DNA of 23,603 bases from a virus (IMGVR_UViG_3300042691_023995:64001-87603), one strand, 5' to 3'; positions 5,670-22,048 are shown, counted from the first letter of the stretch. Notes: generated by a model from the letters alone, not told the origin. Program-made: numbers and translations.

Positions 5670-8600
5670 CATCTATCTTCTGGTGGCATTCAAACTGCCT
5701 ATCTGTTCCCTTGTGTTCAGGACACCAGTTCCAATCTCCTGGGTCAAACCTATATTCAGCCTTGTTCCAGCATCCGTGGCATACATTCTTGTTGTCAATC
5801 CTGATGCATTCAAACTCATGATCTGCTTCTGTGAAGTTGCTTATCATCATCACCTTCTTGTTAAGAGCCCAGGCTAACCAGCTAAGTCCGCTGGACAGTC
5901 CTATGAATATCTTACTGTGATGGATGACATTCATAGTGTTCTCTATGGATGTATCCTCTATCTGTTCGCAGTGATCAAAAGGATTCTTCTCCTTAGATAC
6001 ATTTATCACCTTGTATCCTTTCTCATGCAGGAAGTCAATCACTAATTGCCAGCCTTCTTTGGTCCAGAACTTACAGCCTGATGTAGAGTTGGTGGCTATT
6101 GTAACATATTTACCATATAAATTGTTACCAATTTGGTAACTGATTCTTGGTTTAATCTCTTGGTAATCAAGACCTAATATGTTACTTGCTGCTTTCTGGA
6201 GGGGGATGGTGTTACAAAGCTCAGGCTCCTTGTCTGGATTGTAAAACCAACCTATGCTATACATACCAAGGATGCCCTCAGCCTTCTGACCAGGTTCAAT
6301 AAACTCAAGCTCTGGATAGACATCTTTGAAGAGGAAGTTCTTGAACGTGCTCACTATCACATGGCAGTTGTGCTTCTTCTTAAACTCTAATACATATGGC
6401 ATCCAGGCTATAGTATCTCCTAATGACTTGCTGTCAAACGCTATGTACACACGCTTACCTGTATAGTCTAGGGTGTATTCGTAATAAGGCTCTTCATCTT
6501 TCCATATCTTAATGGTCCACTTAGTATACCACCTCCTATTGAGCTTAACCCAGTTCTGGACACCTATTGTGTTTCTGTAATGACACACACCCTCCTCATC
6601 GAGATATTCCACTCTAAACTTGCTCTTGGACCTTCCCTTGATTTCAAGGAACGGTTCTAATATAAAATTGTGATCAATTGTCACATGTTCATCAGATTGT
6701 ACAACATCTTGTACAACTTTCTGATAGATGGCAAGATGTGTAAGAGCAAACTCAAGCTCCTGATTCTCAGGGATATCGTATTTCTTTGGATTGCTCAGCT
6801 GCTCATACACTTGTTCCTTCAGCTTAGCTGGGTCCAAATCGGTAATATATTTCGTAAACATGTCTCCATATTGAGGAAGATTCCTGGCAATGATGGGTAG
6901 ACCATGGCCTATTGCTTCTCTAATCACCAGAGGATTACACTCAAATGTGCTGTTGAACAGGAACAAATCAGCTCCTGCCATGAAATCAGCTACATCATTA
7001 CGCTCTCCCAATACATGTACATTAGGAGGAAGATCTTTCATCAGGGGCTCCCAGTAGTGCTGGAAGTTACCAGCTTGGTTACCTACAAAGTGAAACTGTA
7101 CATCTGGCATCTGTCTAGCTAGCTCTACAGCTTCTCCTTGGTTCTTGCCAGGAGTCCACAGTCCTACATTCAGAACATGTTTCCCTTGTCCAAAATGTAC
7201 AGGTGTAGCCTCCTTCTTCTCAATAGGATGTTCCACTACATACTTAGGAGAAGGCATGTTTGCAAATGTCTTCAGATGATGTGGTGTGCAGAACATGTAG
7301 CTATCTGGATGAAAGCGCTTCTCAATGTCTGGCTTGAATATAATGTTGTGACATGTCTCAATCATCCTCCAGGTTCTGTTTGGAGCATACAAAGCTTCTC
7401 TCAGGGATTCTGGCCAGTTGTTCCAGCCATCTTCTACCATCTCTTCCACATGTACAACATCAATCCTATTATTCCTGATGATGTCTATCAGCTCCATCTT
7501 GTTCTCTCCCAGTGTCCAGAAGTGACTCACCAGCTTTTTTATCTGGTCTTTCTGTACAACAAAGTGATCGCTGTGATTGGAGTATTCCACAACATAGATG
7601 TCTACATTGGTGTGCGCTTGCAAAGCCTGAATTCTTCTCAAGAGGAAGGCAGGCATTCCGCCTGTGGATAGATGTGGTGCCACAAACAACACTCGTAAAT
7701 GTTCCTTCTGACGCTCAACCATCTTACGCATTACATCCTTGTTCTTTTCCCCGTGGTAGAATAATAAATCATCTACTGAAGCTGGTGTAGCTAGAAAATG
7801 ACCTATATGTTTCTTGTACCCAGCAAACTCCACATTGTTCACCCTGTCCAAAGATCCATTCATGTATATGTAAGGAAGTCCTTTTAGGTAGCTATGCTTC
7901 CACAGAAGCACATTTGCTATTGTTTCCTCGTGGTATGGAGCATAATATTGTGGATTCTGCAGAATCTTTGGATGGTTGCACATCCAAATCCACTCATCTA
8001 GAAAGTCTATGCACCACTGTCCAGCTACAAAGTATCCTGTCTGTCTGTATTTATCTCGTACATATTGGTTTACACCAAACAACTCACAGGCTGGATGTTC
8101 AAGCGTGGTGGATAGGTCATCTCTACTCTCAGCCCCACCTCTGCCATTGTTAATCATCCACTCGTATATCCCTTCTGTGAAATATGGATAGGGGGATTTA
8201 GCTGGGAATAGGTCAAACATCCTGTCTACATATCTGGTGGCCACACTGTCAGCATCTACATATACCACTGTCTTAGCAAGACTGAGCGCATCTTTAACAA
8301 TAGCTGGACGCTGTATTAAGATTTTATATATGTCACTGCTAGCCCTGTCAATATACTCACCCTGAGCAGGGTTCTCAACATCACATTCCCAGTTGATAGT
8401 GATGGCTCCTGGTACATCTGCATTTGAGTTAAGAAGGTAGACAAATATGGCAACATTGCTATGTACTCTAATAGAAGCTACACATCCCTCGATGGTATCA
8501 CGGTAGCTCTCAGTTCCATATATGACATAAGCCCTATTCAACCTGGGGTCCTCGTTAACGTAATACCCATACCAATCATTGGTGTACAGAGGAACAAGTC

Positions 8601-9051
8601 CTGGGTAGCGCTCTTTCATTACATCTGGAGTGAGATCTGGCTGAAGATGGGTTTCGTAGGTGTTCCCATATTCCTCCCCATCCTGTTCCATAGTGTAGGG
8701 GATGGCCACAAGAAAGTGCTTACCGTGGAAATGCATAGCATTTATAAGACGCTTAGCATCTTCTTTTCCTAGGTGTTCTAGGACATCTCCCAGTATAATG
8801 AAGTCATAATCTGTCCAGTTAAACTCAACGATGTTCTCAATGTAAACATTGTCATATTTATTTCTCAGGCTAAATTGGTCTACATAGGGAGCCCACACCT
8901 CTACAGCATCCATCCTATATCCTAAATTCCTTAGCAAATCTGAATAAGTGCCCTGCCCAGGACCTACATCTAGGATACGTGTACTAAGGGGAACATTGTC
9001 TATAAACCACTGTTTTATCTCAGACTTGAAATAGGAATAGCTGTTGGGCAT
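5632..9051 (-). CDS. Four-domain enzyme: class I methyltransferase + GT-A + GT4 + autotransporter strand-loop-strand O-heptosyltransferase (TibC/Aah-like)
   Basis: ILDVGPGQG and GDVLEHL (methyltransferase); VVYVDADS (DxD, GT-A); FVAPHLSTGGMP, GKNQ, FECNPLVIREA (GT4); SKSLGDTIAW, FIGLSSGLSWLAWA, VCHGCWN..WCP..QFEC (four Cys typical of the TibC/Aah family). Confidence 0.85.
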   Translation of the reverse strand: MPNSYSYFKSEIKQWFIDNVPLSTRILDVGPGQGTYSDLLRNLGYRMDAVEVWAPYVDQFSLRNKYDNVYIENIVEFNWTDYDFIILGDVLEHLGKEDAKRLINAMHFHGKHFLVAIPYTMEQDGEEYGNTYETHLQPDLTPDVMKERYPGLVPLYTNDWYGYYVNEDPRLNRAYVIYGTESYRDTIEGCVASIRVHSNVAIFVYLLNSNADVPGAITINWECDVENPAQGEYIDRASSDIYKILIQRPAIVKDALSLAKTVVYVDADSVATRYVDRMFDLFPAKSPYPYFTEGIYEWMINNGRGGAESRDDLSTTLEHPACELFGVNQYVRDKYRQTGYFVAGQWCIDFLDEWIWMCNHPKILQNPQYYAPYHEETIANVLLWKHSYLKGLPYIYMNGSLDRVNNVEFAGYKKHIGHFLATPASVDDLLFYHGEKNKDVMRKMVERQKEHLRVLFVAPHLSTGGMPAFLLRRIQALQAHTNVDIYVVEYSNHSDHFVVQKDQIKKLVSHFWTLGENKMELIDIIRNNRIDVVHVEEMVEDGWNNWPESLREALYAPNRTWRMIETCHNIIFKPDIEKRFHPDSYMFCTPHHLKTFANMPSPKYVVEHPIEKKEATPVHFGQGKHVLNVGLWTPGKNQGEAVELARQMPDVQFHFVGNQAGNFQHYWEPLMKDLPPNVHVLGERNDVADFMAGADLFLFNSTFECNPLVIREAIGHGLPIIARNLPQYGDMFTKYITDLDPAKLKEQVYEQLSNPKKYDIPENQELEFALTHLAIYQKVVQDVVQSDEHVTIDHNFILEPFLEIKGRSKSKFRVEYLDEEGVCHYRNTIGVQNWVKLNRRWYTKWTIKIWKDEEPYYEYTLDYTGKRVYIAFDSKSLGDTIAWMPYVLEFKKKHNCHVIVSTFKNFLFKDVYPELEFIEPGQKAEGILGMYSIGWFYNPDKEPELCNTIPLQKAASNILGLDYQEIKPRISYQIGNNLYGKYVTIATNSTSGCKFWTKEGWQLVIDFLHEKGYKVINVSKEKNPFDHCEQIEDTSIENTMNVIHHSKIFIGLSSGLSWLAWALNKKVMMISNFTEADHEFECIRIDNKNVCHGCWNKAEYRFDPGDWNWCPEHKGTDRQFECHQKIDASQVVFALLGHI

Positions 9052-10214: not shown

Positions 10215-10682
10215 ATGCAGATTTCAAAACACCTATCTCTAGCTGAGGTGAGCAGAAGTGAAACCGCTAAGCGTAAGGGTATCAACAACACTCCCTCTGG
10301 AGAACATCTGGAGAACTTCAAGAAGTTGGCTGAGAACATATTTGAGCCTATTCGTGAGCACTTTGCTGTGCCTATCCACATTAGTTCTGGCTACAGAAGT
10401 AAGGAGCTTAATGCTTCTATTGGTGGGGCTTCTAGCTCTCAACACTGCTCTGGTGAGGCAATTGATATCGATATGGATGGTTCATCATCTGGCGTATCTA
10501 ACGCAGATGTGTTTAAATACATTAAGGACAATCTGAACTTTGACCAGCTCATCTGGGAATTTGGTTCAGATAGCAACCCTGACTGGGTGCATGTATCTTA
10601 TGAGGCCACTGGTAAGCAGCGCAAGCAGATCTTGAAGGCTGTTAAGTCTGGTGGTAAGACGTCTTACGTACCCTTTAAATAA
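10215..10682 (+). CDS. Endolysin, peptidase M15A (Zn D-Ala-D-Ala peptidase fold)
   Basis: ISSGYRS, SQH..GEAIDI (H-x6-D), FDQLIWE, WVHVSY. Confidence 0.88.
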   Translation: MQISKHLSLAEVSRSETAKRKGINNTPSGEHLENFKKLAENIFEPIREHFAVPIHISSGYRSKELNASIGGASSSQHCSGEAIDIDMDGSSSGVSNADVFKYIKDNLNFDQLIWEFGSDSNPDWVHVSYEATGKQRKQILKAVKSGGKTSYVPFK

Positions 10683-10688
10683 TTGAAA

Positions 10689-10955
10689 ATGAAGAAGTTC
10701 TTAAAAGATTTATTCAATGATGACAACTCTATCAATGAGAAAGCTGTCGTTGGATTCATAGCCTTCCTCATGATGGTAATCACTCTGGCTACAGATATTG
10801 TCACTGGTGTATTGGGTAGAGAAATGCCCATCCAGGAGTTCATATTTGATGGCTTCATGGTGATCGTAATAGGATCATTTGGAATAGCTTCCGTAGATAA
10901 ATGGATTAACAAAACAAAAGGAAATAAAGATGAGCAAGAAGGAACTGAAGGTTAG
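10689..10955 (+). CDS. Two-TM membrane protein (holin candidate)
   Basis: AVVGFIAFLMMVITLA and FIFDGFMVIVIGSFGIA, with a charged C-terminus. ATG at 10689 preferred over TTG at 10683. Confidence 0.55.
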   Translation: MKKFLKDLFNDDNSINEKAVVGFIAFLMMVITLATDIVTGVLGREMPIQEFIFDGFMVIVIGSFGIASVDKWINKTKGNKDEQEGTEG

Positions 10956-11214
10956 TGCCCTCCCAATTAGCTTTGCAGAATTTGCAAAGGAGCCTGTAAA
11001 AGGGCTTATGTTTATCTGCTTGGTGGCTGTGGGCTACCTCTATGTAGATGGCAAAATCAATTACAACAATCAGATTGAAACTCAAGGAAAGAAGATTGAG
11101 GTGTTGGAGACAAAGGTGGATTTGCTAACCAATCAGCTTAGAAAGTCTGACAGTGCGCTTAGCTCTGCTATGTCTAAAATAGCAACCCTCCAAGAACTAG
11201 GTAAAATCAAATAG
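10930..11214 (+). CDS. TM + coiled-coil protein (inner-membrane spanin-like)
   Basis: LMFICLVAVGYLYV followed by about 50 aa of heptad repeats. Confidence 0.45.
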   Translation: MSKKELKVSALPISFAEFAKEPVKGLMFICLVAVGYLYVDGKINYNNQIETQGKKIEVLETKVDLLTNQLRKSDSALSSAMSKIATLQELGKIK

Positions 11215-11217
11215 GAT

Positions 11218-11568
11218 ATGAGAAAGCTTCTCCTTTTTTTATTGTTAACTGGTTGTGCATCAGCACCCACCCCTAAAATTGAGAGCCATGAAAGCGATTC
11301 AATTCTTGTTAAAAGCGAAAGCACATTTGTCACAAGCACTACAGTTTTTAAACAAGTTGATAAGTCCATCAACAAAAAAGTGAATAAGGTTGTGAAGGAA
11401 ATGGTCCAATTGAAGATTGAGAACAAACAATTGACTAAGGCAGCTTCTGTAAAGACAATCATCAGAGATACGATATACATCACTGAGAAGAAAAACTTCT
11501 GGGGTAAGACAAAGAAAACAACAGACTCTTCCCAAGGAGTGATAGTAGATACTCTTGAAAATCAATAA
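11218..11568 (+). CDS. Lipoprotein (outer-membrane spanin-like)
   Basis: Signal peptide II MRKLLLFLLLTGC with lipobox LTGC. Confidence 0.6.
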   Translation: MRKLLLFLLLTGCASAPTPKIESHESDSILVKSESTFVTSTTVFKQVDKSINKKVNKVVKEMVQLKIENKQLTKAASVKTIIRDTIYITEKKNFWGKTKKTTDSSQGVIVDTLENQ

Positions 11569-11571
11569 GTT

Positions 11572-11700
11572 ATGGCAAAATCAAAATCATCAGGCGAATC
11601 CCGTAAGATAAGCTTTGGGAAGCGCAAGGGTGGGAAAGCTAAGAAGACTAGCGGACCCAAGGACAAGAAGGTCTCTAAATACAGAGGTCAAGGCAGATAA
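11572..11700 (+). CDS. 42-aa basic microprotein ending KYRGQGR (not in ORF track)
   Basis: MAKSKSSGESRKISFGKRKGGKAKKTSGPKDKKVSKYRGQGR; starts 3 nt after the upstream stop. Confidence 0.65.
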   Translation: MAKSKSSGESRKISFGKRKGGKAKKTSGPKDKKVSKYRGQGR

Positions 11701-11727
11701 CGAAAACCCCCTATATGGAAGGTGACC

Positions 11728-11943
11728 ATGCTAAGAAAACAAAGAAACAGGCTAATAGCCCTAAGAGATGCATCCCTAATGCTAGCGATGTTTTTCCTAC
11801 CATTTGGGTACGATTTCCTTTTCAAGTTGATAATGGAGGTAACTGGATCATTCTGGGCAGCAGATCTTATCTTCTATGGAATCTCAGGATCGTTCTTTGT
11901 CTCCTATATTTTGCTGTCCAAATATTTAAACAAAGTTAGTTAG
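11728..11943 (+). CDS. Small two-TM membrane protein
   Basis: Basic N-terminus, then SLMLAMFFLPFGY and LIFYGISGSFFVSYILL. Start is ATG 11728 or GTG 11722. Confidence 0.5.
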   Translation: MLRKQRNRLIALRDASLMLAMFFLPFGYDFLFKLIMEVTGSFWAADLIFYGISGSFFVSYILLSKYLNKVS

Positions 11944-11986
11944 AGCTGTTTTAACGAACTTGGTTATTGTAATTTATTGAAGCTCA

Positions 11987-12016
11987 TTGTTTTTAGTTAT
12001 AAACACCTTACATTTG
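11987..12016 (+). promoter_or_regulatory. Bacteroidota promoter: TTG(11987-11989)-N19-TACATTTG(12009-12016)
   Basis: Exact -7 box and partial -33 box, 7 nt before the ATG at 12024. Confidence 0.6.
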
Positions 12017-12023
12017 TTACCTT

Positions 12024-12902
12024 ATGCCAATACCCTCAAGACAGATAGGCTGGAGCACGCAGGATAACCTGTTGTGGCAGATTGCTAAACAAATAGAGCA
12101 AGCTGAATGTCAGCTCTGTACGCTTAACGATAACATCCAAACTATCACTGGTACATCTGGTACCAGCGGGTCTAGTGGTATTTCTGGTGCTCCTGGTTCA
12201 TCAGGAACTTCTGGTACTAGTGGTGTAAGCTTATATTACGGATCTTTTATATTTGATCATGCCACTACACTAACCTCAGCCATGAACTCTAACACCACCA
12301 ACCCAATTCAGGTGGTGAGTACAACAGGATTCAGTGCTCCTGGGTATTTAAGAATTAATACAGAGATTATAGCCTATACAGGCATATCTGGAAACACATT
12401 TACAGGCATCACAAGGGGTGTGGCTAGTTCTGGTGGATCTAACCACAGTATTGGTGATGGGGTGGCTCAAGCTCAATATACATCTGCTGGTGTACCTAAA
12501 CAGGTGTTGTTAGATGAAACTGATCTATCAAACGGAGCAGTGTTGAATGTCCTTACAGGAGATGTTACAATTGCTAATTCTGGAGTTTACAACTTACAGT
12601 TTAGTGCTCAGCTTGAAAACTTCAGTAACGATGTTGAAGATGCCATCATCTGGTTTACAGTGAATGGGAACGATGTTCCTAAGTCAGCTAGTTACATAAC
12701 AACTCCCACTATCCATGGAGGTACACCTGGTGCCACCCTCATGACAGTGAACATTTTTTATACAATCACTGGTGGTGATGTAGTGGGTTTGAAATGGACT
12801 AGTAAGAACGGCAAGACAGCCATAACAAGCATACCTCCTGTAGGAAGCACCATACCGCAGTCCCCAGGAGTTATTTTTACAGTAAATAAAATAGGAATAT
12901 AA
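12024..12902 (+). CDS. Fibre-like structural protein: MPIPSR coiled-coil module + Gly-X-Ser repeat + beta-rich C-terminal domains
   Basis: LLWQIAKQIEQAECQLC heptads; Gly at every third residue from 43 to 67; C-terminal VTIANSGVYNLQFSAQL resembling C1q/BclA-type heads. Confidence 0.6.
   Translation: MPIPSRQIGWSTQDNLLWQIAKQIEQAECQLCTLNDNIQTITGTSGTSGSSGISGAPGSSGTSGTSGVSLYYGSFIFDHATTLTSAMNSNTTNPIQVVSTTGFSAPGYLRINTEIIAYTGISGNTFTGITRGVASSGGSNHSIGDGVAQAQYTSAGVPKQVLLDETDLSNGAVLNVLTGDVTIANSGVYNLQFSAQLENFSNDVEDAIIWFTVNGNDVPKSASYITTPTIHGGTPGATLMTVNIFYTITGGDVVGLKWTSKNGKTAITSIPPVGSTIPQSPGVIFTVNKIGI
12150..12224 (+). repeat. Gly-X-Y (mostly G-T/S-S) collagen-like triplet repeat
   Basis: GTS GTS GSS GIS GAP GSS GTS GTS G. 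Confidence 0.85.
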
Positions 12903-12903
12903 A

Positions 12904-13056
12904 ATGCCAATACCATCAAGAGGAATAGGTTGGGGTACAACAGAGAATTTGTTGTGGCAAATAGCCAAGCAGCTGGAGGGTATTTCCTGCCAGCTTTGTG
13001 ATTTGAATAACAACTTCACCACCACAACCACCACGACCACCGTATCCCCAGGATAA
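12904..13056 (+). CDS. 50-aa paralogue of the 12024 N-terminus with a Thr8 tail (not in ORF track)
   Basis: MPIPSRGIGWGTTENLLWQIAKQLEGISCQLCDLNNNFTTTTTTTTVSPG; starts 1 nt after the upstream stop; identical residues often use different synonymous codons from the 12024 gene. Confidence 0.85.
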   Translation: MPIPSRGIGWGTTENLLWQIAKQLEGISCQLCDLNNNFTTTTTTTTVSPG

Positions 13057-13084
13057 CATAAGTTATAAACCAACAAAACTACAT

Positions 13085-14101
13085 ATGAAGGATTTAAAGT
13101 ATGTCTGTGTTCAACCAGATGATACCTACTACACATGGCAGGTACACCTTTGGTTGGAGAGCCTTAGAAAGAGAAATGAATCTGACAAGGCTATTGTTCT
13201 GATATTCATCCCCAAAACTAGGGAACAGAACCCTAAGTGGCAGCAAGTGATTGACCTCTATCCTGAGGCAGAGTTTCACTTCTACAAGGATGAACATGAC
13301 GTAAGTCAATTATTAGGAATCTACATCCCTGTTCTGAGACCTTACACCCTCTGGAGACATTGGAAAGAACATCCAGAACTAAGTGATAAAGCTATATTCT
13401 ACTGTGATTCAGACGTCATCTTTACAGAGAAGTTTGATGTTCAACAGTTTATAGACGATGATATATGCTACCTATCTGAAACAACTAGCTACATAAGCGC
13501 TGCGTATTTTGATAGTAAGGTGAGAGATGTCAAGCCTGAGAAACTAGAAGAATACAAGACAAGAGATGTTCTTGCTGAAATAGGCAGTGTAGTTGGTATC
13601 AGCAGGGAGGAAGCAGAAGCTAAGAACAATGATTCTGGTGGAGCTCAATATCTCCTCAAGAACATAGATGCTAAGTTCTGGAGCAAGGTGATGAACGATT
13701 GCATCCTAATTAGGAGCTATCTGCAGAGAATAAACAAAGAGTTCTTTGAGAACGAAAACAAAGGATTCCAAAGCTGGTGCGCTGATATGTGGGCTGTGCT
13801 GTGGAATCTGTGGGTGAGAGAAAAAGAGGTGAAGGTGATTCCTGAAATGGGATTCAGCTGGGCACCAGACCCCATCACTAAACTAGAAACACACCCCATC
13901 CTTCATAATGCAGGAATTGTAGCTACACAAATGGATGGTTACAACTGTTTTTACAAGGGTAAATACCACCTAGGTGTTGATCCTTCAAAAGATGCGCATC
14001 TAGATGCAGTTCTCAATGATGAGAAAGCAAAACCAAGGTGCACATGGTATTACACAAACGAGTTGAAAAACTTATTTAATAAATATAACCTTAACTATTA
14101 A
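13085..14101 (+). CDS. GT-A glycosyltransferase resembling HPAT/SERGT1 peptide O-glycosyltransferases (CAZy GT95/GT96-like)
   Basis: DDTYYTWQ, YIPVLRPY, FYCDSD (DxD), GGAQY, SWCADMWA and ILHNAG appear in the same order as HPAT/SERGT motifs recalled from memory (YxxWQ, YxxxNRP, DxD/EPD, WxxEMY, IxHY). Confidence 0.65.
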   Translation: MKDLKYVCVQPDDTYYTWQVHLWLESLRKRNESDKAIVLIFIPKTREQNPKWQQVIDLYPEAEFHFYKDEHDVSQLLGIYIPVLRPYTLWRHWKEHPELSDKAIFYCDSDVIFTEKFDVQQFIDDDICYLSETTSYISAAYFDSKVRDVKPEKLEEYKTRDVLAEIGSVVGISREEAEAKNNDSGGAQYLLKNIDAKFWSKVMNDCILIRSYLQRINKEFFENENKGFQSWCADMWAVLWNLWVREKEVKVIPEMGFSWAPDPITKLETHPILHNAGIVATQMDGYNCFYKGKYHLGVDPSKDAHLDAVLNDEKAKPRCTWYYTNELKNLFNKYNLNY

Positions 14102-14112
14102 CCCTAATTATT

Positions 14113-14319
14113 ATGGGAAGCATTGACACAAGACCTTTAAAAGCTTATGTCCGTTTCGATGGAAGCGGAAGAATAGTTGCAGGTAGTCTTATACTGAGAA
14201 GAAAGAAGCCCAAGGTTGGTAAGTGGGTAGAAATTCCAGCGTATGAGTGCTGCAATCTTACAACCACGACCACTACAACAGTGGCTCCTACAACAACTAC
14301 TACCACTACACTCATCTAA
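14113..14319 (+). CDS. 68-aa protein: VRFDG..CC module + Thr7-VAP-Thr7 tail
   Basis: LKAYVRFDGSGRIVAGSLILRRKKPKVGKWVEIPAYECC followed by the poly-Thr tail. Confidence 0.85.
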   Translation: MGSIDTRPLKAYVRFDGSGRIVAGSLILRRKKPKVGKWVEIPAYECCNLTTTTTTTVAPTTTTTTTLI

Positions 14320-14330
14320 ACCCTTAACAC

Positions 14331-15125
14331 ATGTTTAATAACAATCAAAGAAAGGGACTGAAGGCTTGGGTTAGATATGACGGTAATAAAAATGCTGTAG
14401 CTGGAAGTCTTATATTCCAAAAAGATAAACCCAAGGTGGGCAATTGGAAGGAATACATGGATGTGAATCTGTGTTGCCCTGCCACACCAAGTGGTGGATA
14501 TGAATGCTGTATTGCCATACAGGGTGTTGCAGAAAGTGAAACTGGATTGTATGGTTTTACAATTGAAACTAGAAACAGTGGACCCAATTTAACAGGAACT
14601 ATCCATTGGACATCTACACAAAGTGAGAGCTTCTCCCTTGTTTCTAACGGGGATGATTATGATTTTGAATACAACTTTGGAGATTCAATCCCTCACACTA
14701 TCTACTTATGTATAGACAATCCTAGTCAAATCTTAGACTTTGAGATTGGGTTTGGTCCTGGTGTGGCTCAGTCAATCTCCAATCTTCAGCAATTAGAAGG
14801 TTTTGGCGAGTGGGATGGTGATGATATGGCATTCACATCTCTAGATTTTACAGGACTCACTTCATTTAATGAATTATATAACATAGATACGGGACTTCAG
14901 CATATAAATATTACAGGTTGTGTAAACTTGGATGCTGTTGAATTAACTGGAAATGCTTTAACACAAGCTTCTGTAGATCATGTTCTTATTACACTTGATA
15001 ATAATGGTTTAACAGGTGGATATCTTGATCTTAGTGGAGGCACTAATTCTGCACCATCTGTTGCAGGATCAGCAGCTGAGGCAAGTCTCTTATTAAAAGC
15101 TTGGAGCGTAAGTGTTAATCCCTAA
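14331..15125 (+). CDS. VRYDG..CC module + acidic beta/LRR-like C-terminal region (putative surface/decoration protein)
   Basis: N-terminus paralogous to 14113. C-terminal LDFTGLTSFNEL, INITGCVNLDAVELTGNALTQASVD has leucine-rich-repeat-like periodicity. Confidence 0.6.
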   Translation: MFNNNQRKGLKAWVRYDGNKNAVAGSLIFQKDKPKVGNWKEYMDVNLCCPATPSGGYECCIAIQGVAESETGLYGFTIETRNSGPNLTGTIHWTSTQSESFSLVSNGDDYDFEYNFGDSIPHTIYLCIDNPSQILDFEIGFGPGVAQSISNLQQLEGFGEWDGDDMAFTSLDFTGLTSFNELYNIDTGLQHINITGCVNLDAVELTGNALTQASVDHVLITLDNNGLTGGYLDLSGGTNSAPSVAGSAAEASLLLKAWSVSVNP

Positions 15126-15137
15126 AATTTAAACATC

Positions 15138-15290
15138 ATGCCAATAAAAAAAGTAACCCCAGAAGAAAAAGCCATCAGAGAAGCTCAAAATAAGAAGGTG
15201 TCTGACTATATAAAAGAAGGTAAAACTGTTGAAGAGGCTAGGGAGCTTGTAAAAGCTGCTAAACAAAAAATTATAAAAAATGGCAAATAG
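15138..15290 (+). CDS. 50-aa charged helical microprotein (not in ORF track)
   Basis: MPIKKVTPEEKAIREAQNKKVSDYIKEGKTVEEARELVKAAKQKIIKNGK; A-rich leader; overlaps the next start. Confidence 0.55.
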   Translation: MPIKKVTPEEKAIREAQNKKVSDYIKEGKTVEEARELVKAAKQKIIKNGK

Positions 15291-15720
15291 AAACGCATTA
15301 CAGGCATACGTTCGTTTTGATGGAACAGGACGTGTGATACCAGGAAGCTTGATTCTCAACAGATTCAAGCCACAGGTGGGAAACTGGAAACAAATTGGTT
15401 CCTATGAATGTTGTGATCCATTCTGTCTTCCTCCAGTGTATGGAGAAGACTACATCATTATAGACGCTGTTGAGGTGGAAGGTGGAATCACTTTCCAAAT
15501 TGCAACTAATCCTTTTATTAGTGGTCTTGTATTGGAAGTTTGTATGGTTGATTGTGATTCAACTCCTCCAGATAGAATTCTTCCTTTGCAGATTGAACTA
15601 ATCCAGGGTAATGAATACAACTACTTTGTTCCTAATGCCATTCTTGACCAGTCATGCGCTCTTGGATTCAGAAGAATCTGTGAAGCTACACAGTCTGGAT
15701 GGTCTCTTTCAGGTGGATAA
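15280..15720 (+). CDS. VRFDG..CC module + Cys-containing acidic C-terminal domain
   Basis: LQAYVRFDGTGRVIPGSLILNRFKPQVGNWKQIGSYECC, the third copy of the module. Confidence 0.7.
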   Translation: MANRNALQAYVRFDGTGRVIPGSLILNRFKPQVGNWKQIGSYECCDPFCLPPVYGEDYIIIDAVEVEGGITFQIATNPFISGLVLEVCMVDCDSTPPDRILPLQIELIQGNEYNYFVPNAILDQSCALGFRRICEATQSGWSLSGG

Positions 15721-15738
15721 TATTAAAAACTTAATACA

Positions 15739-15861
15739 ATGGCAGAACAAGTAAAAACATTGCAGGATTTCTTGAAAGAATATCCTAATGATAAGGCAGA
15801 AGCTGTTAAGCAATATTTAATTTACGTAGGCCGCTTTGGCGGAGAATTTAAAACTAACTAA
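15739..15861 (+). CDS. 40-aa microprotein (not in ORF track)
   Basis: MAEQVKTLQDFLKEYPNDKAEAVKQYLIYVGRFGGEFKTN; TAATG coupling to the next gene; aaaaacttaatacaATG leader. Confidence 0.55.
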   Translation: MAEQVKTLQDFLKEYPNDKAEAVKQYLIYVGRFGGEFKTN

Positions 15862-16280
15862 TGGCAAAGTCACTATTTCCTGAGAAAATGCTAAGCTCGT
15901 CTGGTGGAGAACTTTCTCCAGATGTTGTAGCTACAAAGCTGACACACTTTGAACTTCAGCTACACAATCTACATTGGGCTACAAGAAGCTATGCAGAACA
16001 CCAAGCTCTTGGTGGACTGTATGACAAGGTGTTTGACCTAAAGGATGAGATTGTAGAAAAGATTATGGGCTACACAGGAACTAGAGCTAAGATAGGAGCA
16101 CATGCTCCTTTGAAAGACTATGCTGTTGGTGTATCTGATCAAGTGGTTAGTGAGCTGATTACATTTGCTAAGCAGCTTGAGAGCTACGCAGAGGCTAACA
16201 ATATGCCTGACATTGAGAACATTGCTCAATCCTTGAGTGGAGAAGCAGCCAAAACTAAATACCTACTAACACTGTCCTAA
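15861..16280 (+). CDS. Ferritin/Dps-like four-helix-bundle protein (phage DUF5856-like)
   Basis: LHNLHW..SYAEH..L..LY......DEIVE resembles the Dps ferroxidase HW..H..D..E pattern; ends YLLTLS. Confidence 0.7.
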   Translation: MAKSLFPEKMLSSSGGELSPDVVATKLTHFELQLHNLHWATRSYAEHQALGGLYDKVFDLKDEIVEKIMGYTGTRAKIGAHAPLKDYAVGVSDQVVSELITFAKQLESYAEANNMPDIENIAQSLSGEAAKTKYLLTLS

Positions 16281-16570
16281 TGGTCATCAATAAGAGGTTC
16301 TTTCCTGAGGTGCTCCCTGATAATGAACTTGCTTATTTTGCACATCTAGAGGGAGTGTTGAGCTCCGTAGATGAACTAGCAAGTTTAGAGATTACCAAGA
16401 ACCCCCATTCTTATCATTTCAGACTAGTGCCTAGTCTTCCTAAATATAACAACATGCTCCTGGAGGAGATATTAAAACTACATAACATCTTCCAGATCAA
16501 GCTAAACCTTTCCAAGTCAATCAAAACTTCTGCAACGATAGCTTTTGAAATAAGTTTGGAAAATTCATAA
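16280..16570 (+). CDS. Hypothetical protein
   Basis: 96-aa ORF, TAATG-coupled to the ferritin-like gene. Confidence 0.6.
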   Translation: MVINKRFFPEVLPDNELAYFAHLEGVLSSVDELASLEITKNPHSYHFRLVPSLPKYNNMLLEEILKLHNIFQIKLNLSKSIKTSATIAFEISLENS

Positions 16571-16586
16571 ACGACACATATATTTG
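16555..16586 (+). promoter_or_regulatory. Bacteroidota promoter: TTTG(16555-16558)-N20-TATATTTG(16579-16586)
   Basis: Exact consensus with a 20-nt spacer, heading the basic-protein cluster. Confidence 0.72.
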
Positions 16587-16608
16587 TGCAAACCAAAAAT
16601 TAAATAAT

Positions 16609-16845
16609 ATGGCAAACTACGATCCTAGCAAACGTTACACATGGACTCCTGATGACAAATTTGAATTCACAGGAGCTGAATTTGGTCTTATTTTGAACGC
16701 ATTCCGTGCTGTTCTAAACACAGAAGAAGCTGGACGCATTCTTCTAGCTAACGAAGCTAACCAAGTGGTGGAGCGTGCTCTTGCAAAAGCTGTTGAAGCT
16801 GATGTTGTTAAAGAGGCTGACGCAACTCCTCAAGCAGGTTTATAA
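16609..16845 (+). CDS. Hypothetical acidic helical protein
   Basis: 78-aa ORF with an A-rich leader just after the promoter. Confidence 0.65.
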   Translation: MANYDPSKRYTWTPDDKFEFTGAEFGLILNAFRAVLNTEEAGRILLANEANQVVERALAKAVEADVVKEADATPQAGL

Positions 16846-16855
16846 AACTATTAAT

Positions 16856-17311
16856 ATGGCAAAGATTAAGAAAGCCCAAAGAGGCGCTGGTGTTCCTAAA
16901 GGTTATGTTCGTGGAGAAATGACTGGTCGTCTTATTCCTGAGAAGGAATATGAAAAGCATCAGAGCGATATGGCCAAGAGTCTTCAAGAGATGAAAGATC
17001 AATTGAAGAAAGACACCTCTAAACCTAAATCAGCTGTTAAGAAAACTGCTGTTGCTCCTAAGAAGAAAATGAAGAGCGGTGGCAAACTTGCTAAACAGGC
17101 TGCTATAGCAATCTCCATGAAGAAAAAAGGCATTAAGCCTAAAATGGATAAGGCTAAAGGTGGTAAAGAGATGATCAAACGTGCTGATGGAAGCTATTCT
17201 CAGCGTGGTTTGTGGGATAACATCCGTGCTAATAAAGGCTCAGGTAAGAAACCTACAGCTCAAATGTTGAAGCAAGAGAAGAAGATTAAAGCAGCTTCTA
17301 AGAAGAAATGA
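16856..17311 (+). CDS. Lys-rich basic protein A (putative virion internal/DNA-binding protein)
   Basis: Starts MAKIKKAQRG at ATG 16856 (the track start 16775 overlaps the previous gene); internal MKSGGK and AKGGK; contains GLWDNIRA. Confidence 0.7.
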   Translation: MAKIKKAQRGAGVPKGYVRGEMTGRLIPEKEYEKHQSDMAKSLQEMKDQLKKDTSKPKSAVKKTAVAPKKKMKSGGKLAKQAAIAISMKKKGIKPKMDKAKGGKEMIKRADGSYSQRGLWDNIRANKGSGKKPTAQMLKQEKKIKAASKKK

Positions 17312-17388
17312 AATTCTGTGGCATCCATATCATAGAACTAGATGAACATGGACTATGCCCAATTTGTCTTGAACAATCTAATAAATAA
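17308..17388 (+). CDS. 26-aa C-x2-H-x9-C-x2-C microprotein (putative mini zinc finger; not in ORF track)
   Basis: MKFCGIHIIELDEHGLCPICLEQSNK; ATGA overlap with the upstream stop; fills the gap to the next gene. Confidence 0.5.
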   Translation: MKFCGIHIIELDEHGLCPICLEQSNK

Positions 17389-17393
17389 TTGAA

Positions 17394-17741
17394 ATGGCTA
17401 AAATTAAAAAAGCTCAAGCTGGACTTAAAGCTCCTAACAAACGTGTAGGACCTGTTGATCCTTCAGGTGCTTGGACCAAGGTGCAAGAACAAACTCTTGC
17501 TGGAAAAAAGACACCTGTTAGTCTTAAAAAAGACAAGGAACTTGGTGCTACATCTATGGCTAAAGGTGGCAAGTGGATTCAGAAAGCTATCAAGAAGCCT
17601 GGGGCTCTTCGTAAGTCTTTGGGTGCTAAGCCTGGTAAGCCAATCCCTGCTGCTAAACTTGCCAAAGCTGCTAAAGCTCCTGGTAAGTTGGGTCAGCGTG
17701 CACGCCTTGCTCAGACTTTGAAAAAGATGAAGAAGAAGTAA
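17394..17741 (+). CDS. Lys-rich basic protein B
   Basis: MAKIKKAQAG leader; MAKGGK followed by WIQKAIKKPGALRKSLG..KLGQRARLAQTLKK. Confidence 0.75.
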   Translation: MAKIKKAQAGLKAPNKRVGPVDPSGAWTKVQEQTLAGKKTPVSLKKDKELGATSMAKGGKWIQKAIKKPGALRKSLGAKPGKPIPAAKLAKAAKAPGKLGQRARLAQTLKKMKKK

Positions 17742-17742
17742 A

Positions 17743-18225
17743 ATGGCTTCCATAAAGAAACTCCTTAAGAGCGCTCCTAGACTTAGAAACAGTCTTCCTC
17801 AGAATGTCACAAGAGGAAACGGAGTGAAGAACCCACAGAAGGCAGAAGCTTATGTGGGTAAAGGTGTTTTAAGAAGTGGTGATACAATTACAGCTGTCAA
17901 GGGATCCATTACACCTGTTCCTAACGGACCATTGATTAAGAAGAAAGGTCCTTTCAAAGGATCTACACTTAAGAAGGGTGGGAAGGTGACAGTGATAGCT
18001 GGTGGTGAGAAACATGTTGTGTACAAGAAAACTAGTCCAACAGGTGTTGGTAAGGGGAAGAAAGGACACATCATGGTGAACCATCCTACCAAAGACAAGG
18101 GTAAATGGGACACTATAGATCTCACAAAAATTGGTAGAGCCAAGACTGTTAAACAGGGTGTAGCTTCCACCAAGAAATGGCACAGAGACAATCCTGATTA
18201 TAAATATAAAGGTAAAAAGAAATAA
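17743..18225 (+). CDS. Lys/Gly-rich basic protein C
   Basis: MASIKK start; internal LKKGGK. Confidence 0.7.
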   Translation: MASIKKLLKSAPRLRNSLPQNVTRGNGVKNPQKAEAYVGKGVLRSGDTITAVKGSITPVPNGPLIKKKGPFKGSTLKKGGKVTVIAGGEKHVVYKKTSPTGVGKGKKGHIMVNHPTKDKGKWDTIDLTKIGRAKTVKQGVASTKKWHRDNPDYKYKGKKK

Positions 18226-18227
18226 CC

Positions 18228-18710
18228 ATGGCTAAGGTAAAAAAGGCCCAGATGGGTTATAGAGTGAGAGGTGAGGGTAGGAGTTGTGGTATTGAGCGTC
18301 AAGCTCGTAAGGATGAGCGTCAGTCTGAAAGAGAGTGGAGAAAGATGGACAGACAGAGTACACGTGAGGTGAAGCGTGATGAACGCATTGCTGCTCGTGA
18401 GGCTAAGAAAGTTCCTAAACAACGCTCTGGTGGTAAAACACCAGCTTGGCAAAGAAAGGAAGGAAAGAATCCTTCTGGTGGTCTAAATGCAAAAGGTGTA
18501 GCAAGCTATAGAGCTGCCAATCCTGGATCTAAGCTGAAGACTGCTGTAACAACAAAGCCTTCCAAGCTTAAACCTGGAAGCAAAGCTGCTAGTCGTCGTA
18601 AGAGTTTCTGTTCTAGAATGTCAGGTATGAAAAAGAAACTGACATCTGCCAAAACTGCCAACGATCCAAATAGCAGAATCAACAAAAGTTTGAGGAAGTG
18701 GAACTGCTGA
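18228..18710 (+). CDS. Basic protein D with a C-terminal DUF6321-like module
   Basis: MAKVKKAQMG leader; QRSGGK, then AWQRKEGKNPSGGLN..RRKSFCSRM..DPNSRINKSLRKWNC. Confidence 0.7.
   Translation: MAKVKKAQMGYRVRGEGRSCGIERQARKDERQSEREWRKMDRQSTREVKRDERIAAREAKKVPKQRSGGKTPAWQRKEGKNPSGGLNAKGVASYRAANPGSKLKTAVTTKPSKLKPGSKAASRRKSFCSRMSGMKKKLTSAKTANDPNSRINKSLRKWNC
18690..18710 (+). repeat. Copy 1 of an imperfect 21-nt direct repeat (copy 2 at 19124-19144), both encoding L-[R/K]-K-W-N-C-stop
   Basis: TTGAGGAAGTGGAACTGCTGA vs TTGAAAAAATGGAATTGCTAA, 16/21 identical. Confidence 0.75.
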
Positions 18711-19144
18711 TTAAGAAAAGATATTGGGGAAGGATTTCAAAGATTTCTGATGAACTAGGAAGGTTTAGATGTAGTAAGTGTGGAGAATGGAAAGATCCTT
18801 CTGAATTTAATAAAAATAGTCAACAGAAAACTGGATTAAGTTACGCTTGTAGAGAATGTATGAGAGTAGCTACTAGAAAATGGAACCTACCTGCAAAATA
18901 TAACATAACATCAGAGAGATTTGATGAGATGTTAAAAGAACAAGATTACAAATGTGCATGTTGTGGAGTGGAACTTGATACAACAGGTAGACAACATAAC
19001 AAACCACATGTAGATCATAATCATCTTACTGGAGAAGTTAGGGAAATTCTCTGCGGAAATTGTAACTTAGCTGCTGGTAAGGTAAAAGATAGTTCAGAGA
19101 TAGCCAAGAAACTGGCTGATTACTTGAAAAAATGGAATTGCTAA
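18698..19144 (+). mobile_element. Free-standing homing endonuclease, endonuclease VII (His-Me finger) family, with an N-terminal Zn-ribbon
   Basis: RCSKC..CREC; KYNIT..FDEML..Q..KCACC; VDHNH.TGEVR.ILC..CN. There is no ATG; the GTG at 18698 lies inside the last codons of gene D. Confidence 0.8.
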
Positions 19145-19165
19145 TACTTAAAAACTTAAATAACA

Positions 19166-19681
19166 ATGGCACGTATTAAGAAAATGCAGGATGGTGGTAA
19201 ATCCTCCCTCGGTATGAAATCAGTAAAGGCTGGATTTGATAAAAATCCTGGCGTTACAAGAGCAGACATCATTGTGGCTGCTAAGAAAGAAGCTAAGAAA
19301 GGAGCTAAGATTAAGAAAGCTCAAGATGGTGAGAAATTGAAAGTGGCTCTTCGCTCTGGTCAATTGAAAAGACTTGGTAAGTTGAGCGCTAAGAACCCTG
19401 AGAAAGCTGAGAAGGTAGGTAAAAGCATGGTTGAAAGAGCTACACGTAAGCAACGTGGTGTAGAATACTTGAAGAAGAATGCTCCAGCACTTAAGCCTTC
19501 AAGCGCTAAATCTTCTGTAGAAATGAAGAAAGGTGGTAAGTTGAAGAAAGCTCGTAGCGGTGCTACACTATCTCCTTCTAAGAAAAGCGTATCTAGTGTT
19601 CTTGGTGGTTACAAGCGTGTTATTGGAAAGAGCATGCGTGATGGTGGATCTATGAAAAAATGCAGGGGAGGTTGCTATTAA
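19166..19681 (+). CDS. Lys-rich basic protein E with repeated KKAQxG / xxxGG motifs
   Basis: MARIKKMQDGG, AKIKKAQDG, MKKGGKLKKARSG, MRDGG, CRGGCY. Confidence 0.75.
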   Translation: MARIKKMQDGGKSSLGMKSVKAGFDKNPGVTRADIIVAAKKEAKKGAKIKKAQDGEKLKVALRSGQLKRLGKLSAKNPEKAEKVGKSMVERATRKQRGVEYLKKNAPALKPSSAKSSVEMKKGGKLKKARSGATLSPSKKSVSSVLGGYKRVIGKSMRDGGSMKKCRGGCY

Positions 19682-19891: not shown

Positions 19892-20524
19892 ATGGTAAAA
19901 CTAACATGTATATGTCCTGTGTGGAAAAGACCACAGAGGACCATTAGAGCAATAGAATCTGTTGTAGCCCAGAAGTTTGATGGCTATGAGGCATTGTTCA
20001 TAGGTGACAGATGTCCAGAGTTTCAAAAACATCTGGACGCTGGTACATTTAAGAAATACGAAGAACAAGTGGCTGCTACAGGTAACAAGATATTATTCCA
20101 TAATATGGATGAACATTATGGGGGCTGGGGACATGGTGCACGTAAGTACGGCATTGATATAGCTCAGGGAGAATACATATGCTTCCTGGACAATGATGAT
20201 GTTCTCAAGCCCAACCATTTTGCTAACTATTATGGATTCATGCAAGAGAACCCAGACATTCATGTAGGTTATTTCAATGCACGTACAGAGCCCTGGAAAA
20301 AGAACAGAGTTTCTTGTCTATCCAGAGGAGGCATTGGAAACGCAGAATTAATGATAAAGACAGATGTTCTTAAGAAGAACTATAGACTAGATCCAGAATA
20401 TGAACATGACTGGAGACTAGTGGAGAGAATGTTAAACTACGGATATAAGTTCAAAAAGAGCACAGCAGCTCCTACATATATAATAATGAGTATTCCTAAC
20501 TATCGAGAAACCACAATTGACTGA
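19892..20524 (+). CDS. GT2-family glycosyltransferase
   Basis: LTCICPVWKR, AIESVVAQ, ARKYG...AQGEYICFLDNDD, HDWRL. Confidence 0.85.
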   Translation: MVKLTCICPVWKRPQRTIRAIESVVAQKFDGYEALFIGDRCPEFQKHLDAGTFKKYEEQVAATGNKILFHNMDEHYGGWGHGARKYGIDIAQGEYICFLDNDDVLKPNHFANYYGFMQENPDIHVGYFNARTEPWKKNRVSCLSRGGIGNAELMIKTDVLKKNYRLDPEYEHDWRLVERMLNYGYKFKKSTAAPTYIIMSIPNYRETTID

Positions 20525-21204
20525 TGATAACGGTTATTATTCCTGCTTACAAAGCAACTAAGTACATAGATGAATGCCTTGCTTCTCTGCCAGGGGCTGA
20601 GATATTGGTAGGAATAGACCGTTGTAAAGAGACATTTGACCACCTGGTGGGTAGAACAGACATAAAGACGTTCTATTTTACAGAGAATGTAGGACCTTAT
20701 GTTATTAAAAACACACTAGTTGATGAGGCTTCTCATGACAAAATCCTATTTTTTGACTCTGATGACATCCTTGTAGAGGGTGTTCTGGATAGGATAGAGA
20801 AGGCTTTAGATAATGTAGACTACGTAAAACTCAACTATATCAACTTCACAGGCAGGATTAATCATAAGGCACACAAGATGAATGATGCTGTAATAGCTAT
20901 CAACCGTCCTGTGTTTAACGAGCTGAATGGTTTTAAACCATGGAGATGTGGAGCTGATACAGAGTTTGCACACCGTTTAGCATTTAACAAACTGAAACAC
21001 ATAGTGCTAGATGATATAGCCTATTACAGAAGAATCCATGGTGAAAATCTCACTGTGAGAAAAGAAACAGGATATGATTCTCCTATAAGAAAAGGATATA
21101 TGGAGTATATTGCAAGGCGTCAAAGAGAAAACAACTGGGTAAATCCAACACATAAACAAACTCAAGGATATGTTACTTATACAACAACCCATCGAGGAGC
21201 TTAA
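20524..21204 (+). CDS. GT2-family glycosyltransferase
   Basis: ITVIIPAY, YIDECLASL, ILFFDSDD, GADTEF, YYRRIH. Confidence 0.85.
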   Translation: MITVIIPAYKATKYIDECLASLPGAEILVGIDRCKETFDHLVGRTDIKTFYFTENVGPYVIKNTLVDEASHDKILFFDSDDILVEGVLDRIEKALDNVDYVKLNYINFTGRINHKAHKMNDAVIAINRPVFNELNGFKPWRCGADTEFAHRLAFNKLKHIVLDDIAYYRRIHGENLTVRKETGYDSPIRKGYMEYIARRQRENNWVNPTHKQTQGYVTYTTTHRGA

Positions 21205-22048
21205 GCTTCCTCCTGAAGTGACAATAGGAACTAGGAAGAGATATTCAACAGCTACAGCTGTGGCGTGGATCAATGACCACAAACTTGTATCAGCTGCTTT
21301 TAACAGCAGAAAGGTATATTTAATAGAGCTCACCGAAGATGGTGGTTCTAGGATATTAGATGTTGTAAAGGCTCCTTACAATCCAGACTTGATGGATTAT
21401 AAAGATGGGGTGATAGTTACATCAGACTATCCTTTCTCCAACCCTGATGGACATGCGTCCATATTTGATGTGGTGGATGATAAGATAGTGTATAGGAAAA
21501 GCATTAAGCTTCCCAGTACAAAAGCTCACGGCTGTAAGATTGTAGACAGTAATACCATCATCATCACTAGTAACAGTGACTTCAACAAGGGGTGTTTGTT
21601 TATAGATGTGAACAAAGGTGTGGTGAAAAGCAATCTAAAAGACATGGACCACTACCCTAAAGATGTTCATATAAAGGATGATAGACTTCTAGTGGTGTGT
21701 GCAAAGAGTCTTCCCCAGATAGGACAAACCACCGTGATAGGTGAATCTGTGCTCTATCTATTCGATGTTGCAACATTAACAAGATTAGATGAGGTGAGAT
21801 TTCATGGGCAAACAGACTCTCTCACCATGGATGGTGAACATGTATTCATCACTATACAAGGAGATGATACTGTTGCAGGGTTTACATTAATTGATGATAA
21901 GCTCTCCTATATTGGTAGAGCTGGTGGGTTTAACTTCCCACATGGTATAGATGCGCTAAATGGTAAAATAGCTGTTACAAACTATGGTGATAACACCATC
22001 AGGATATTCACTAAGGATGAGCTTCTACAAAATCTGCAAGCATCTTAA
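21170..22048 (+). CDS. Beta-propeller protein (lactonase/YncE/NHL-like)
   Basis: Blade-like repeats: YNPDLMD, AHGCKI, HYPKDV, GFNFPHGIDA..KIAVTNYGDNTIRIF. Confidence 0.6.
   Translation: MLLIQQPIEELKLPPEVTIGTRKRYSTATAVAWINDHKLVSAAFNSRKVYLIELTEDGGSRILDVVKAPYNPDLMDYKDGVIVTSDYPFSNPDGHASIFDVVDDKIVYRKSIKLPSTKAHGCKIVDSNTIIITSNSDFNKGCLFIDVNKGVVKSNLKDMDHYPKDVHIKDDRLLVVCAKSLPQIGQTTVIGESVLYLFDVATLTRLDEVRFHGQTDSLTMDGEHVFITIQGDDTVAGFTLIDDKLSYIGRAGGFNFPHGIDALNGKIAVTNYGDNTIRIFTKDELLQNLQAS

Follow-up and report, generated by a model that had tools for sequence, protein, structure and literature searches.

Glycosylation of a phage particle by the phage's own enzymes has, to our knowledge, been demonstrated for mycobacteriophages only, and in these phages it blunts antibody recognition of the virion. 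Among eukaryotic viruses, chloroviruses and mimiviruses encode their own capsid or fibril glycosylation; A064R of PBCV-1, for example, unites two glycosyltransferases and a methyltransferase in one protein. Gram-positive bacteria provide the serine-rich repeat glycoproteins GspB and Fap1 with their enzymes GtfA/GtfB, and the collagen-like Thr glycosylation of Bacillus BclA. The plant enzymes SERGT1 and the HPATs transfer the first sugar onto hydroxyl side chains of repetitive, extended peptides, such as the Ser-Hyp4 repeats of extensin (Hyp, hydroxyproline) and small signalling peptides, and Thr/Pro runs are classic acceptors of mucin-type glycosylation. In the mycobacteriophages Che8, Corndog and Myrna, phage-encoded glycosyltransferases O-glycosylate the phage's own virion proteins, as far as the work of Freeman et al. 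(2023; Cell Host Microbe 31:1216) is related in PMC12363180 and PMC13445384. Here we describe a locus of a crAss-like freshwater phage, at positions 12024-15720 of a 23,603-nucleotide stretch of viral DNA (IMGVR_UViG_3300042691_023995:64001-87603; "the window"), which forms the final 23.6 kb of an 87.6-kb record estimated to be 76% complete. Judged from sequence and structure prediction, the locus probably encodes a poly-threonine O-glycosylation system, here with dedicated carriers that each consist of an anchor module and a Thr tail; we are considerably more confident of the pairing between the enzyme and the Thr blocks. In the literature searched, of which coverage was limited, we found no description of such an enzyme/poly-Thr tag pairing in phages.

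The locus is one compact plus-strand run of six open reading frames (ORFs), with intergenic gaps of 1-28 nt between the first and the fifth. The glycosyltransferase gene (GT; 13085-14101, 338 amino acids), proposed to encode the initiating poly-Thr O-glycosyltransferase, is flanked on both sides by very short genes. Upstream, A-short (12904-13056, 50 amino acids) consists of an N-terminal module, which we call module A, and a tail of eight threonines (T8; Thr codons 13018-13041) followed by VSPG, and nothing else. Downstream, B-short (14113-14319, 68 amino acids) carries a different module, module B, at residues ~9-48, beyond which it contains only seven threonines (T7; 14260-14280), VAP, a second T7 (14290-14310) and LI. 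Both are proposed glycan carriers. The remaining three genes encode longer proteins that share these modules. A-long (12024-12902, 292 amino acids) has module A (~38 residues), nine collagen-like Gly-X-Y triplets at residues ~42-68 and fibre-type C-terminal domains; B-long (14331-15125, 264 amino acids) joins module B to a C-terminal domain that resembles leucine-rich repeats (LRRs), and B' (15280-15720, 146 amino acids) joins it to a C-terminal domain of 100 amino acids. Module A is 71% identical between A-long and the first 38 residues of A-short (E = 2e-18, across 38 residues), and module B of B-short is 51% identical to that of B-long (E = 7e-14) and 65% identical to that of B' (E = 1e-19). 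A six-frame ORF scan of the whole window found Ser/Thr runs of at least five residues in A-short and B-short only. An earlier, first-pass annotation had described this six-ORF layout, with two N-terminal modules that each occur once with only a poly-Thr tail, in the two genes that flank the GT, and with both tails continuing as Thr(n)-V-x-P. All ORFs were present as described, the module identities and the six-frame scan agreed with the account of the modules, and the continuation of both tails was as stated. A search of the 11500-16500 segment for near-identical DNA in cultured phages gave no match, and among public sequencing runs none was listed as containing RNA of the locus.

The GT matched the PHROG family phrog_4417, annotated as of unknown function (E = 3.5e-53; residues 4-329 aligned to positions 1-290 of the 293 in the profile). 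Pfam had no match at E ≤ 0.1. An exhaustive search placed it in a family of 753 clusters at 50% identity. Across 59 aligned homologues with 29-47% identity, Y80, D108 and D110 (the DxD motif), Y136, F257, H274 and K291 were invariant; D108, D110 and H274, the last as a third metal ligand, would lie together in the active site. The AlphaFold model (mean predicted local distance difference test score, pLDDT, 97.3; predicted template modelling score 0.93) is a single Rossmann-like alpha/beta/alpha domain of the GT-A type whose catalytic fold starts at residue 4. When this model was searched against the PDB, the 50 matches listed of 223 (E ≤ 0.001) were exclusively GT-A enzymes, among them glycogenin, alpha-1,3-galactosyltransferase, UGGT and WbbM; families GT8, GT6 and GT24 led, the leading matches with template modelling (TM) scores of ~0.45. 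A PDB sequence search with the GT profile returned chance-level matches only. Neither the sequence nor the model has an N-terminal extension or a hydrophobic segment. From its sequence and modelled fold, the GT is a soluble, metal-dependent (DxD...His) GT-A nucleotide-sugar transferase consisting of the bare catalytic domain.

The first-pass annotation had called this enzyme HPAT/SERGT-like, and the fold comparison bore this out. In the AlphaFold Database models of Swiss-Prot proteins, the best match was the Arabidopsis peptidyl-serine alpha-galactosyltransferase SERGT1 (E = 1e-10, TM 0.60), and ranks 1-8 were taken up by SERGT1 and the HPATs (Arabidopsis HPAT1-3 and those of Lotus, Medicago and pea; TM by query 0.59-0.63), above the GT8 glycogenins in the same search (TM 0.46-0.48). 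The structural alignments spanned GT residues 1-337 with just 12-14% identity; in the models the likeness is thus one of fold and not of sequence family. The GT shares a GT-A fold over nearly the whole protein with SERGT1 (CAZy family GT96) and with HPAT1-3, RDN and PLENTY (GT95). It differs from these enzymes in having no membrane anchor: the plant proteins reside in the Golgi membrane, held by an N-terminal anchor, SERGT1 possesses a further domain, and the part aligned to the GT starts no earlier than residue 41 in the matches (near residue 60 for most HPATs, at 392 for Arabidopsis SERGT1). The acceptor residue would also differ, being Thr here, as judged from neighbourhood and co-occurrence, and Ser or Hyp in the plant enzymes.

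We examined the association of the GT with Thr blocks in 81 genomes, namely 80 IMG/VR loci with a GT of 65-92% identity and the window itself; complete relatives are 110-115 kb long and have terminal repeats. A gene composed of a module and a Thr block lay beside the GT gene in 80 of the 81. Iterative profile searches of the 80 loci and the window collected 134 module A proteins, 88 with a Thr block (61 tail-only, 27 with the block linking to a C-terminal domain) and 46 without one (12 of them collagen-like), and 140 module B proteins, 105 with a Thr block (92 tail-only, 13 linking to a C-terminal domain) and 35 without. The module was N-terminal in every module A protein and in 135 of the 140 module B proteins, and the Thr block started no more than 15 residues past module A in 82 of 88 cases. 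Tail-only module A proteins were mostly 44-62 amino acids long, with two of 117 amino acids. Thr runs of at least six residues had a density of 2.18 per kb up to 500 bp from the GT gene, compared to 0.009 per kb at a distance of 3-6 kb (N = 80 viral contigs), a drop of ~250-fold; such a concentration greatly exceeds chance.

The Thr runs of these close relatives were strikingly uniform, with peaks at seven (194 runs) and eight residues (69 runs) and with VAP (39), AAP (35), IAP (6) or ATP (6) as spacers; block length is nearly quantised at seven, and x-Ala-Pro separates the blocks. T7-VAP-T7 was also present beside distant homologues of the GT, in Lactobacillus phage iLp84 and Staphylococcus phage PT1-4. 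The runs are coded by a mixture of ACA, ACT and ACC and are therefore not simple slippage tracts. In the tail-only genes, the ratio of nonsynonymous to synonymous substitution rates was ~0.28 for module A and ~0.085 for module B (motif-anchored alignment), at saturated synonymous divergence. This purifying selection indicates that the tiny genes are real and maintained. Cysteines stand immediately before the Thr block, as CxxC in many A modules and as a near-invariant E-C-C in B modules, and could provide disulfide or metal sites at the foot of the tail. Some relatives have, upstream of the GT, a third N-terminal module with the start MRRC.D.YEIVTVYYPT.C (L034 ~2902-3520; also L042, L045, L048 and L066), which is absent from the window and bears very long runs of alternating Thr and Ser, reaching ~40 residues.

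Beyond this lineage, tblastn with the GT matched 77 of 50,697 cultured phage records at 26-36% identity (E ≤ 1e-5), from phages of Lactobacillus, Enterococcus, Staphylococcus, Lactococcus, Clostridium and Chryseobacterium. In all ten cultured phages that we examined, genes next to the GT encode proteins with Thr or Thr/Ser runs. The nine Firmicutes phages have these runs mostly as C-terminal tails of annotated capsid or tail proteins. Enterococcus phage phiFL1A has them on the capsid-like gp45 and the major tail protein gp50; in Lactobacillus phage iLp84 they occur on the major capsid and major tail proteins and on a 125-amino-acid ORF directly upstream of the GT with T12-VAP-T7-EAPP-T7; and in Lactococcus phage 1706 the capsid protein and the major structural protein both terminate in T9-10-HHD. 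Thr runs also lay beside the GT in Staphylococcus phages PT1-4 and RQ1, Clostridium phage FA88, Enterococcus phages 9183 and 4995_1 and Lacticaseibacillus phage R9.1. In the tenth, Chryseobacterium phage MA9V-3, the two genes just upstream of the GT encode unannotated proteins with internal Thr/Ser runs. Whole-genome searches of five of these ten genomes for T7 tracts found few sites in each, and a reversed-pattern control gave 0 matches. In the four Firmicutes genomes among the five, most tracts lay in capsid, tail or small ORFs a few kb from the GT, with the exception of one 9 kb from it in phage 1706. In MA9V-3 the pure-T7 tracts were 20-30 kb from the GT; the runs adjacent to its GT escape the T7 pattern because they are mixed Thr/Ser.

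Two Enterococcus faecalis phages of the same collection as phiFL1A, phiFL3A (also of its genus) and phiFL4A, served as negative controls. Neither had a match to the GT profile, a Ser/Thr run in any ORF or anything but plain C-termini on its capsid and tail proteins. In the reverse direction, we selected 80 viral loci solely for an (ACN)8 tract, 50 of which contained an in-frame run of at least seven Thr. The GT family was present in four of these 50 (~8%), compared to a base rate of ~0.15% of cultured phage genomes, and in all four the GT abutted or overlapped the poly-Thr gene. The first-pass annotation had taken a GT in phages that lack poly-Thr neighbours as what would speak against the system; the neighbours were found in 80 of 81 close relatives, ten of ten cultured phages and four of four GT-bearing loci sampled by tract. 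Of four short metagenomic contigs whose GT homologues are very distant or fused, two were also Thr-positive, one with an adenosine 5'-phosphosulfate (APS) kinase adjoining. In one relative, the GT domain is fused to a radical S-adenosylmethionine (SAM)/SPASM domain (protein P0226, L214 2659-4635), downstream of two proteins with 3-7 Thr blocks each and upstream of an APS kinase. Staphylococcus phages PT1-4 (L085 3965-4210) and RQ1 (L218 3623-3934) contain an ORF of 81-103 amino acids made of five or six T7 blocks, which overlaps, in a different frame, the 3' end of the gene for the major tail protein. This ORF could be a frameshift extension that gives some tail tube subunits a long Thr brush.

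Compared to the mycobacteriophages, the system proposed here would likewise have a phage GT act, during infection, on structural proteins of the same phage, with several GTs cooperating to produce a glycan-covered particle. Its GT, however, is not detectably related to theirs, and no Mycobacterium phage was among the 77 tblastn records. The proposed acceptors here are homopolymeric T7 blocks on mini-proteins, fibre-like proteins and the muzzle protein, whereas those of mycobacteriophages are major capsid and tail tube subunits; the major capsid protein of this genome has no Thr run, but capsid and tail proteins do carry such runs in the Firmicutes phages with a homologous GT. The host is probably a Bacteroidota bacterium, as opposed to an actinobacterium. 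With GspB and Fap1 the locus would share the placement of a gene for a low-complexity Ser/Thr protein beside dedicated cytoplasmic GTs that act before surface display. GtfA/GtfB, unlike the enzyme here, are GT-B proteins, and they act on repeats of hundreds of residues exported by an accessory Sec route and not on short, quantised T7 units. A multi-enzyme glycan toolkit of the virus's own, with methyltransferase-GT fusions such as a 1139-amino-acid protein of the window, is reminiscent of chloroviruses and mimiviruses; those are giant viruses of eukaryotes that make atypical N-linked or fibril glycans and have no poly-Thr sequon.

Evidence for a link to the virion comes from the long paralogues and from other Thr-block proteins of the genome. 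Residues 73-155 of A-long matched PHROG families of baseplate wedge, tail fibre and virion structural proteins, and its tblastn matches were baseplate wedge, structural and neck proteins of cyanophages; its match to Pfam Collagen was weak (E = 1e-3, 19.3 bits, below the gathering cut-off of 27.2). The feature and structure neighbours of the B-long C-terminus in the ESM Atlas were mostly LRR_4 proteins of phages and Bacteroidota, and B-long had no tblastn match in cultured phages. Pfam gave nothing usable for A-short, B-long or B', and B' had no match in PHROG or the ESM Atlas either. B-short was predicted to form a small beta unit (residues 10-41, pLDDT ~84) with an unstructured Thr tail. A fold search with module B found one near-identical uncharacterised viral protein in BFVD and nothing at Z ≥ 2 in the PDB, and a three-copy complex prediction for residues 1-40 of module A scored 0.22, below the mark. 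The genome itself is crAss-like: its major capsid protein matches Crass_capsid and its muzzle protein crAss_MUZ. Four of its proteins encoded outside the window carry Thr blocks: the muzzle (tail) protein, which has two near its C-terminus; a 390-amino-acid protein within the structural block, whose C-terminus is two Thr blocks separated by V-W-P; and two small neighbouring ORFs. The 390-amino-acid protein had no match in a PDB sequence search or the ESM Atlas. A 108-amino-acid ORF ending in T7 (G000 17489-17815; L091 13490-13813) overlaps by 28 nt the 3' end of a tail-fibre-like gene (16389-17516), and the next gene encodes 278 amino acids with internal T8-SS-T8 and T7 blocks; against the PDB, the sequence of this 278-residue protein gave chance-level matches only (best E = 0.04).

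These observations suggest the following mechanism. In the infected cell, the GT would recognise blocks of ~7 Thr bounded by x-Ala-Pro and attach sugars to them. In this crAss-like lineage, its acceptors would mainly be proteins headed by module A or B: some would be a module and Thr block(s) alone, acting as dedicated glycan carriers; in others the Thr block would connect the module to a binding domain; and further ones would have the module without Thr, as in the collagen-like and LRR forms of the window. The muzzle protein and other structural proteins would be additional Thr-block carriers. Modules A and B would attach to a common site on the virion, so that the particle displays both protein domains and glycosylated Thr brushes, and a lineage-variable set of enzymes, made up of GTs, methyltransferases and a sulfotransferase dependent on 3'-phosphoadenosine-5'-phosphosulfate (PAPS), would elaborate the glycan. 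A common N-terminal module with swappable C-termini that plugs into one docking site is a classical phage appendage design; by that analogy, we regard attachment of the A and B proteins to the virion as an evenly balanced proposition. What the locus adds to the wider association is its crAss-like setting, the two modules with tail-only carriers, the T7-x-A-P unit common to several phyla and the variable sulfation/methylation toolkit. More tentatively, with the balance leaning somewhat against it, the locus may represent a class of minimal virion proteins in crAss-like freshwater phages (44-94 amino acids, a docking module with one to four seven-Thr sequons) whose sole job is to carry lineage-variable, methylated or sulfated glycans made by the phage, together with a general "T7-x-A-P" O-glycosylation sequon, read by a transferase family resembling that of plant extensins, in Bacteroidota and Firmicutes phages alike.

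Several observations weigh against this reading, and they also bear on two alternatives. Of the 50 poly-Thr viral loci, 46 had no GT family member in the stretch examined, and poly-Thr therefore does not require a GT nearby; two of the four short metagenomic contigs with distant GT homologues had no Thr run, one of which ends right at the end of the GT gene. The Thr runs could be plain, unglycosylated spacers or linkers, with the GT acting on phage DNA, a host envelope polymer or a small molecule and its adjacency reflecting shared late expression. Poly-Thr and poly-Ser linkers are indeed frequent in carbohydrate-active and surface proteins (PMC6821194), and the run lies between two domains in the 27 A-type and 13 B-type proteins mentioned above. 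We nevertheless consider this quite unlikely. In 153 proteins the chain terminates right after the Thr block and there is nothing to link; the presence and absence of GT and Thr runs co-vary across phyla, usually with abutting genes; the block length of seven and the x-A-P spacers are common to several phyla; and the nearest fold relatives of the GT are peptide O-glycosyltransferases, not enzymes acting on DNA or lipid. The other points against our reading concern the particle. This phage's major capsid protein has no Thr tail, unlike those of the Firmicutes phages; the A and B genes follow the endolysin and holin-like genes and lie outside the main structural block; and modules A and B have no recognisable relatives, virion protein families included, in the structure or family libraries searched, so that their docking role is argued from architecture. 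These points, and the very small size of the tail-only forms (44-94 amino acids), would suit an arrangement in which Thr blocks are indeed glycosylated by the GT while the small A and B proteins exist as free glycopeptides (decoys, sugar sinks, assembly or scaffold helpers, or released signals), with glycan reaching the particle only on larger structural proteins. That arrangement is unlikely, though less so than plain spacers, because the same modules also head fibre-type and LRR proteins, phage appendages are usually built from a shared N-terminal module and variable C-termini, and the A and B protein sequences contain no signal peptide or membrane segment.

Two further explanations address the short genes themselves. 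They might encode precursors resembling ribosomally synthesized and post-translationally modified peptides (RiPPs), with the module as leader and the Cys pair and Thr block as a glycosylated, glycocin-like core that is released. Their small size, the conserved "leader", the Cys-Cys or CxxC just ahead of the Thr block and the adjoining modifying enzyme all fit such a precursor, as does the relative in which the GT domain is fused to radical SAM/SPASM, a domain typical of RiPP maturases. The same "leaders", however, head proteins of 130-1300 amino acids, and Pfam scans saw no protease or exporter gene nearby. The partners of the GT in Firmicutes are capsid and tail proteins that lack these modules, and the module is therefore not needed for recognition. 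We regard a RiPP-like origin as very improbable. Even less credible is that the short ORFs are functionless, decaying remnants of duplicated long genes, as might be thought from the fact that they share the N-terminal part alone with their longer neighbours. Tail-only forms recur (61 A, 92 B) with conserved C-terminal endings such as AAP and PAP, and the strong purifying selection at saturated synonymous divergence already contradicts decay.

If glycosylation of the Thr blocks is as we propose, virion glycosylation would be carried out by a different and far more widespread enzyme family than that of mycobacteriophages, present in abundant crAss-like freshwater phages among others, through a portable tag of seven Thr and x-Ala-Pro, and the tail-only carriers would be a new kind of virion component. 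Shielding, adhesion and stability are candidate roles for the glycan. The system would then matter to phage therapy, through the immune visibility and stability of Enterococcus and Staphylococcus phages, to dairy phage biology and to the interpretation of cryo-electron microscopy maps of crAss-like virions, and the compact enzyme/tag pair could serve glyco-engineering. The likeness to plant extensin glycosyltransferases is of evolutionary interest.

The window contains further candidate enzymes of glycan synthesis, assigned by Pfam. On the plus strand these are a GT4 (1005-1916), an FkbM methyltransferase (1847-2476), a sulfotransferase (2859-3680), an APS kinase (4635-5093), a small nucleotidyltransferase-like protein of 128 amino acids, resembling cytidylyltransferases (5062-5448), and two GT2 genes (19892-20524 and 20524-21204). 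The minus strand encodes a third GT2 (22011-22760), the three GT2 enzymes being possible chain extenders, and the 1139-amino-acid fusion of a SAM methyltransferase with GT4 and GT9-like domains (5632-9051), which is the sole long minus-strand gene in that part of the window. The sulfotransferase, the APS kinase and the cytidylyltransferase-like protein form a coupled run (2859-5669), possibly a minimal PAPS supply for sulfation of the glycan. The first-pass annotation had proposed that such other GT and methyl enzymes extend the glycan, and this claim stood in part. Natural fusions in other members of the family join the GT domain to Methyltransf_24 or Methyltransf_23, GT2, the DXD-type "Gly_transf_sug" domain or radical SAM/SPASM, and those to GT2, DXD-type GT and methyltransferase domains link the family functionally to chain-extending and methylating enzymes like those of the window. 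Against it, the accessory enzymes are not conserved along with the core: the sulfotransferase was found in three of the five complete relatives, and the 1139-amino-acid fusion likewise in three of five (57-73% identity). A tie between the accessory enzymes and the poly-Thr system is possible; the core seems to be the GT and the Thr blocks, with decoration that varies by lineage.

Directly upstream of the A and B genes lies a lysis block (10215-11214), which begins with an M15 peptidase endolysin (10215-10682) followed by small ORFs, of which at least the first (10683-10955) has a membrane-like segment. It is this block, immediately upstream, that places the carrier genes outside the main structural block. 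Downstream of the locus, the window contains a series of very basic, Lys-rich proteins with a common MAKIKKAQ-type start, followed by an Endonuclease VII gene (18698-19144; the series as a whole, 16775-19681).

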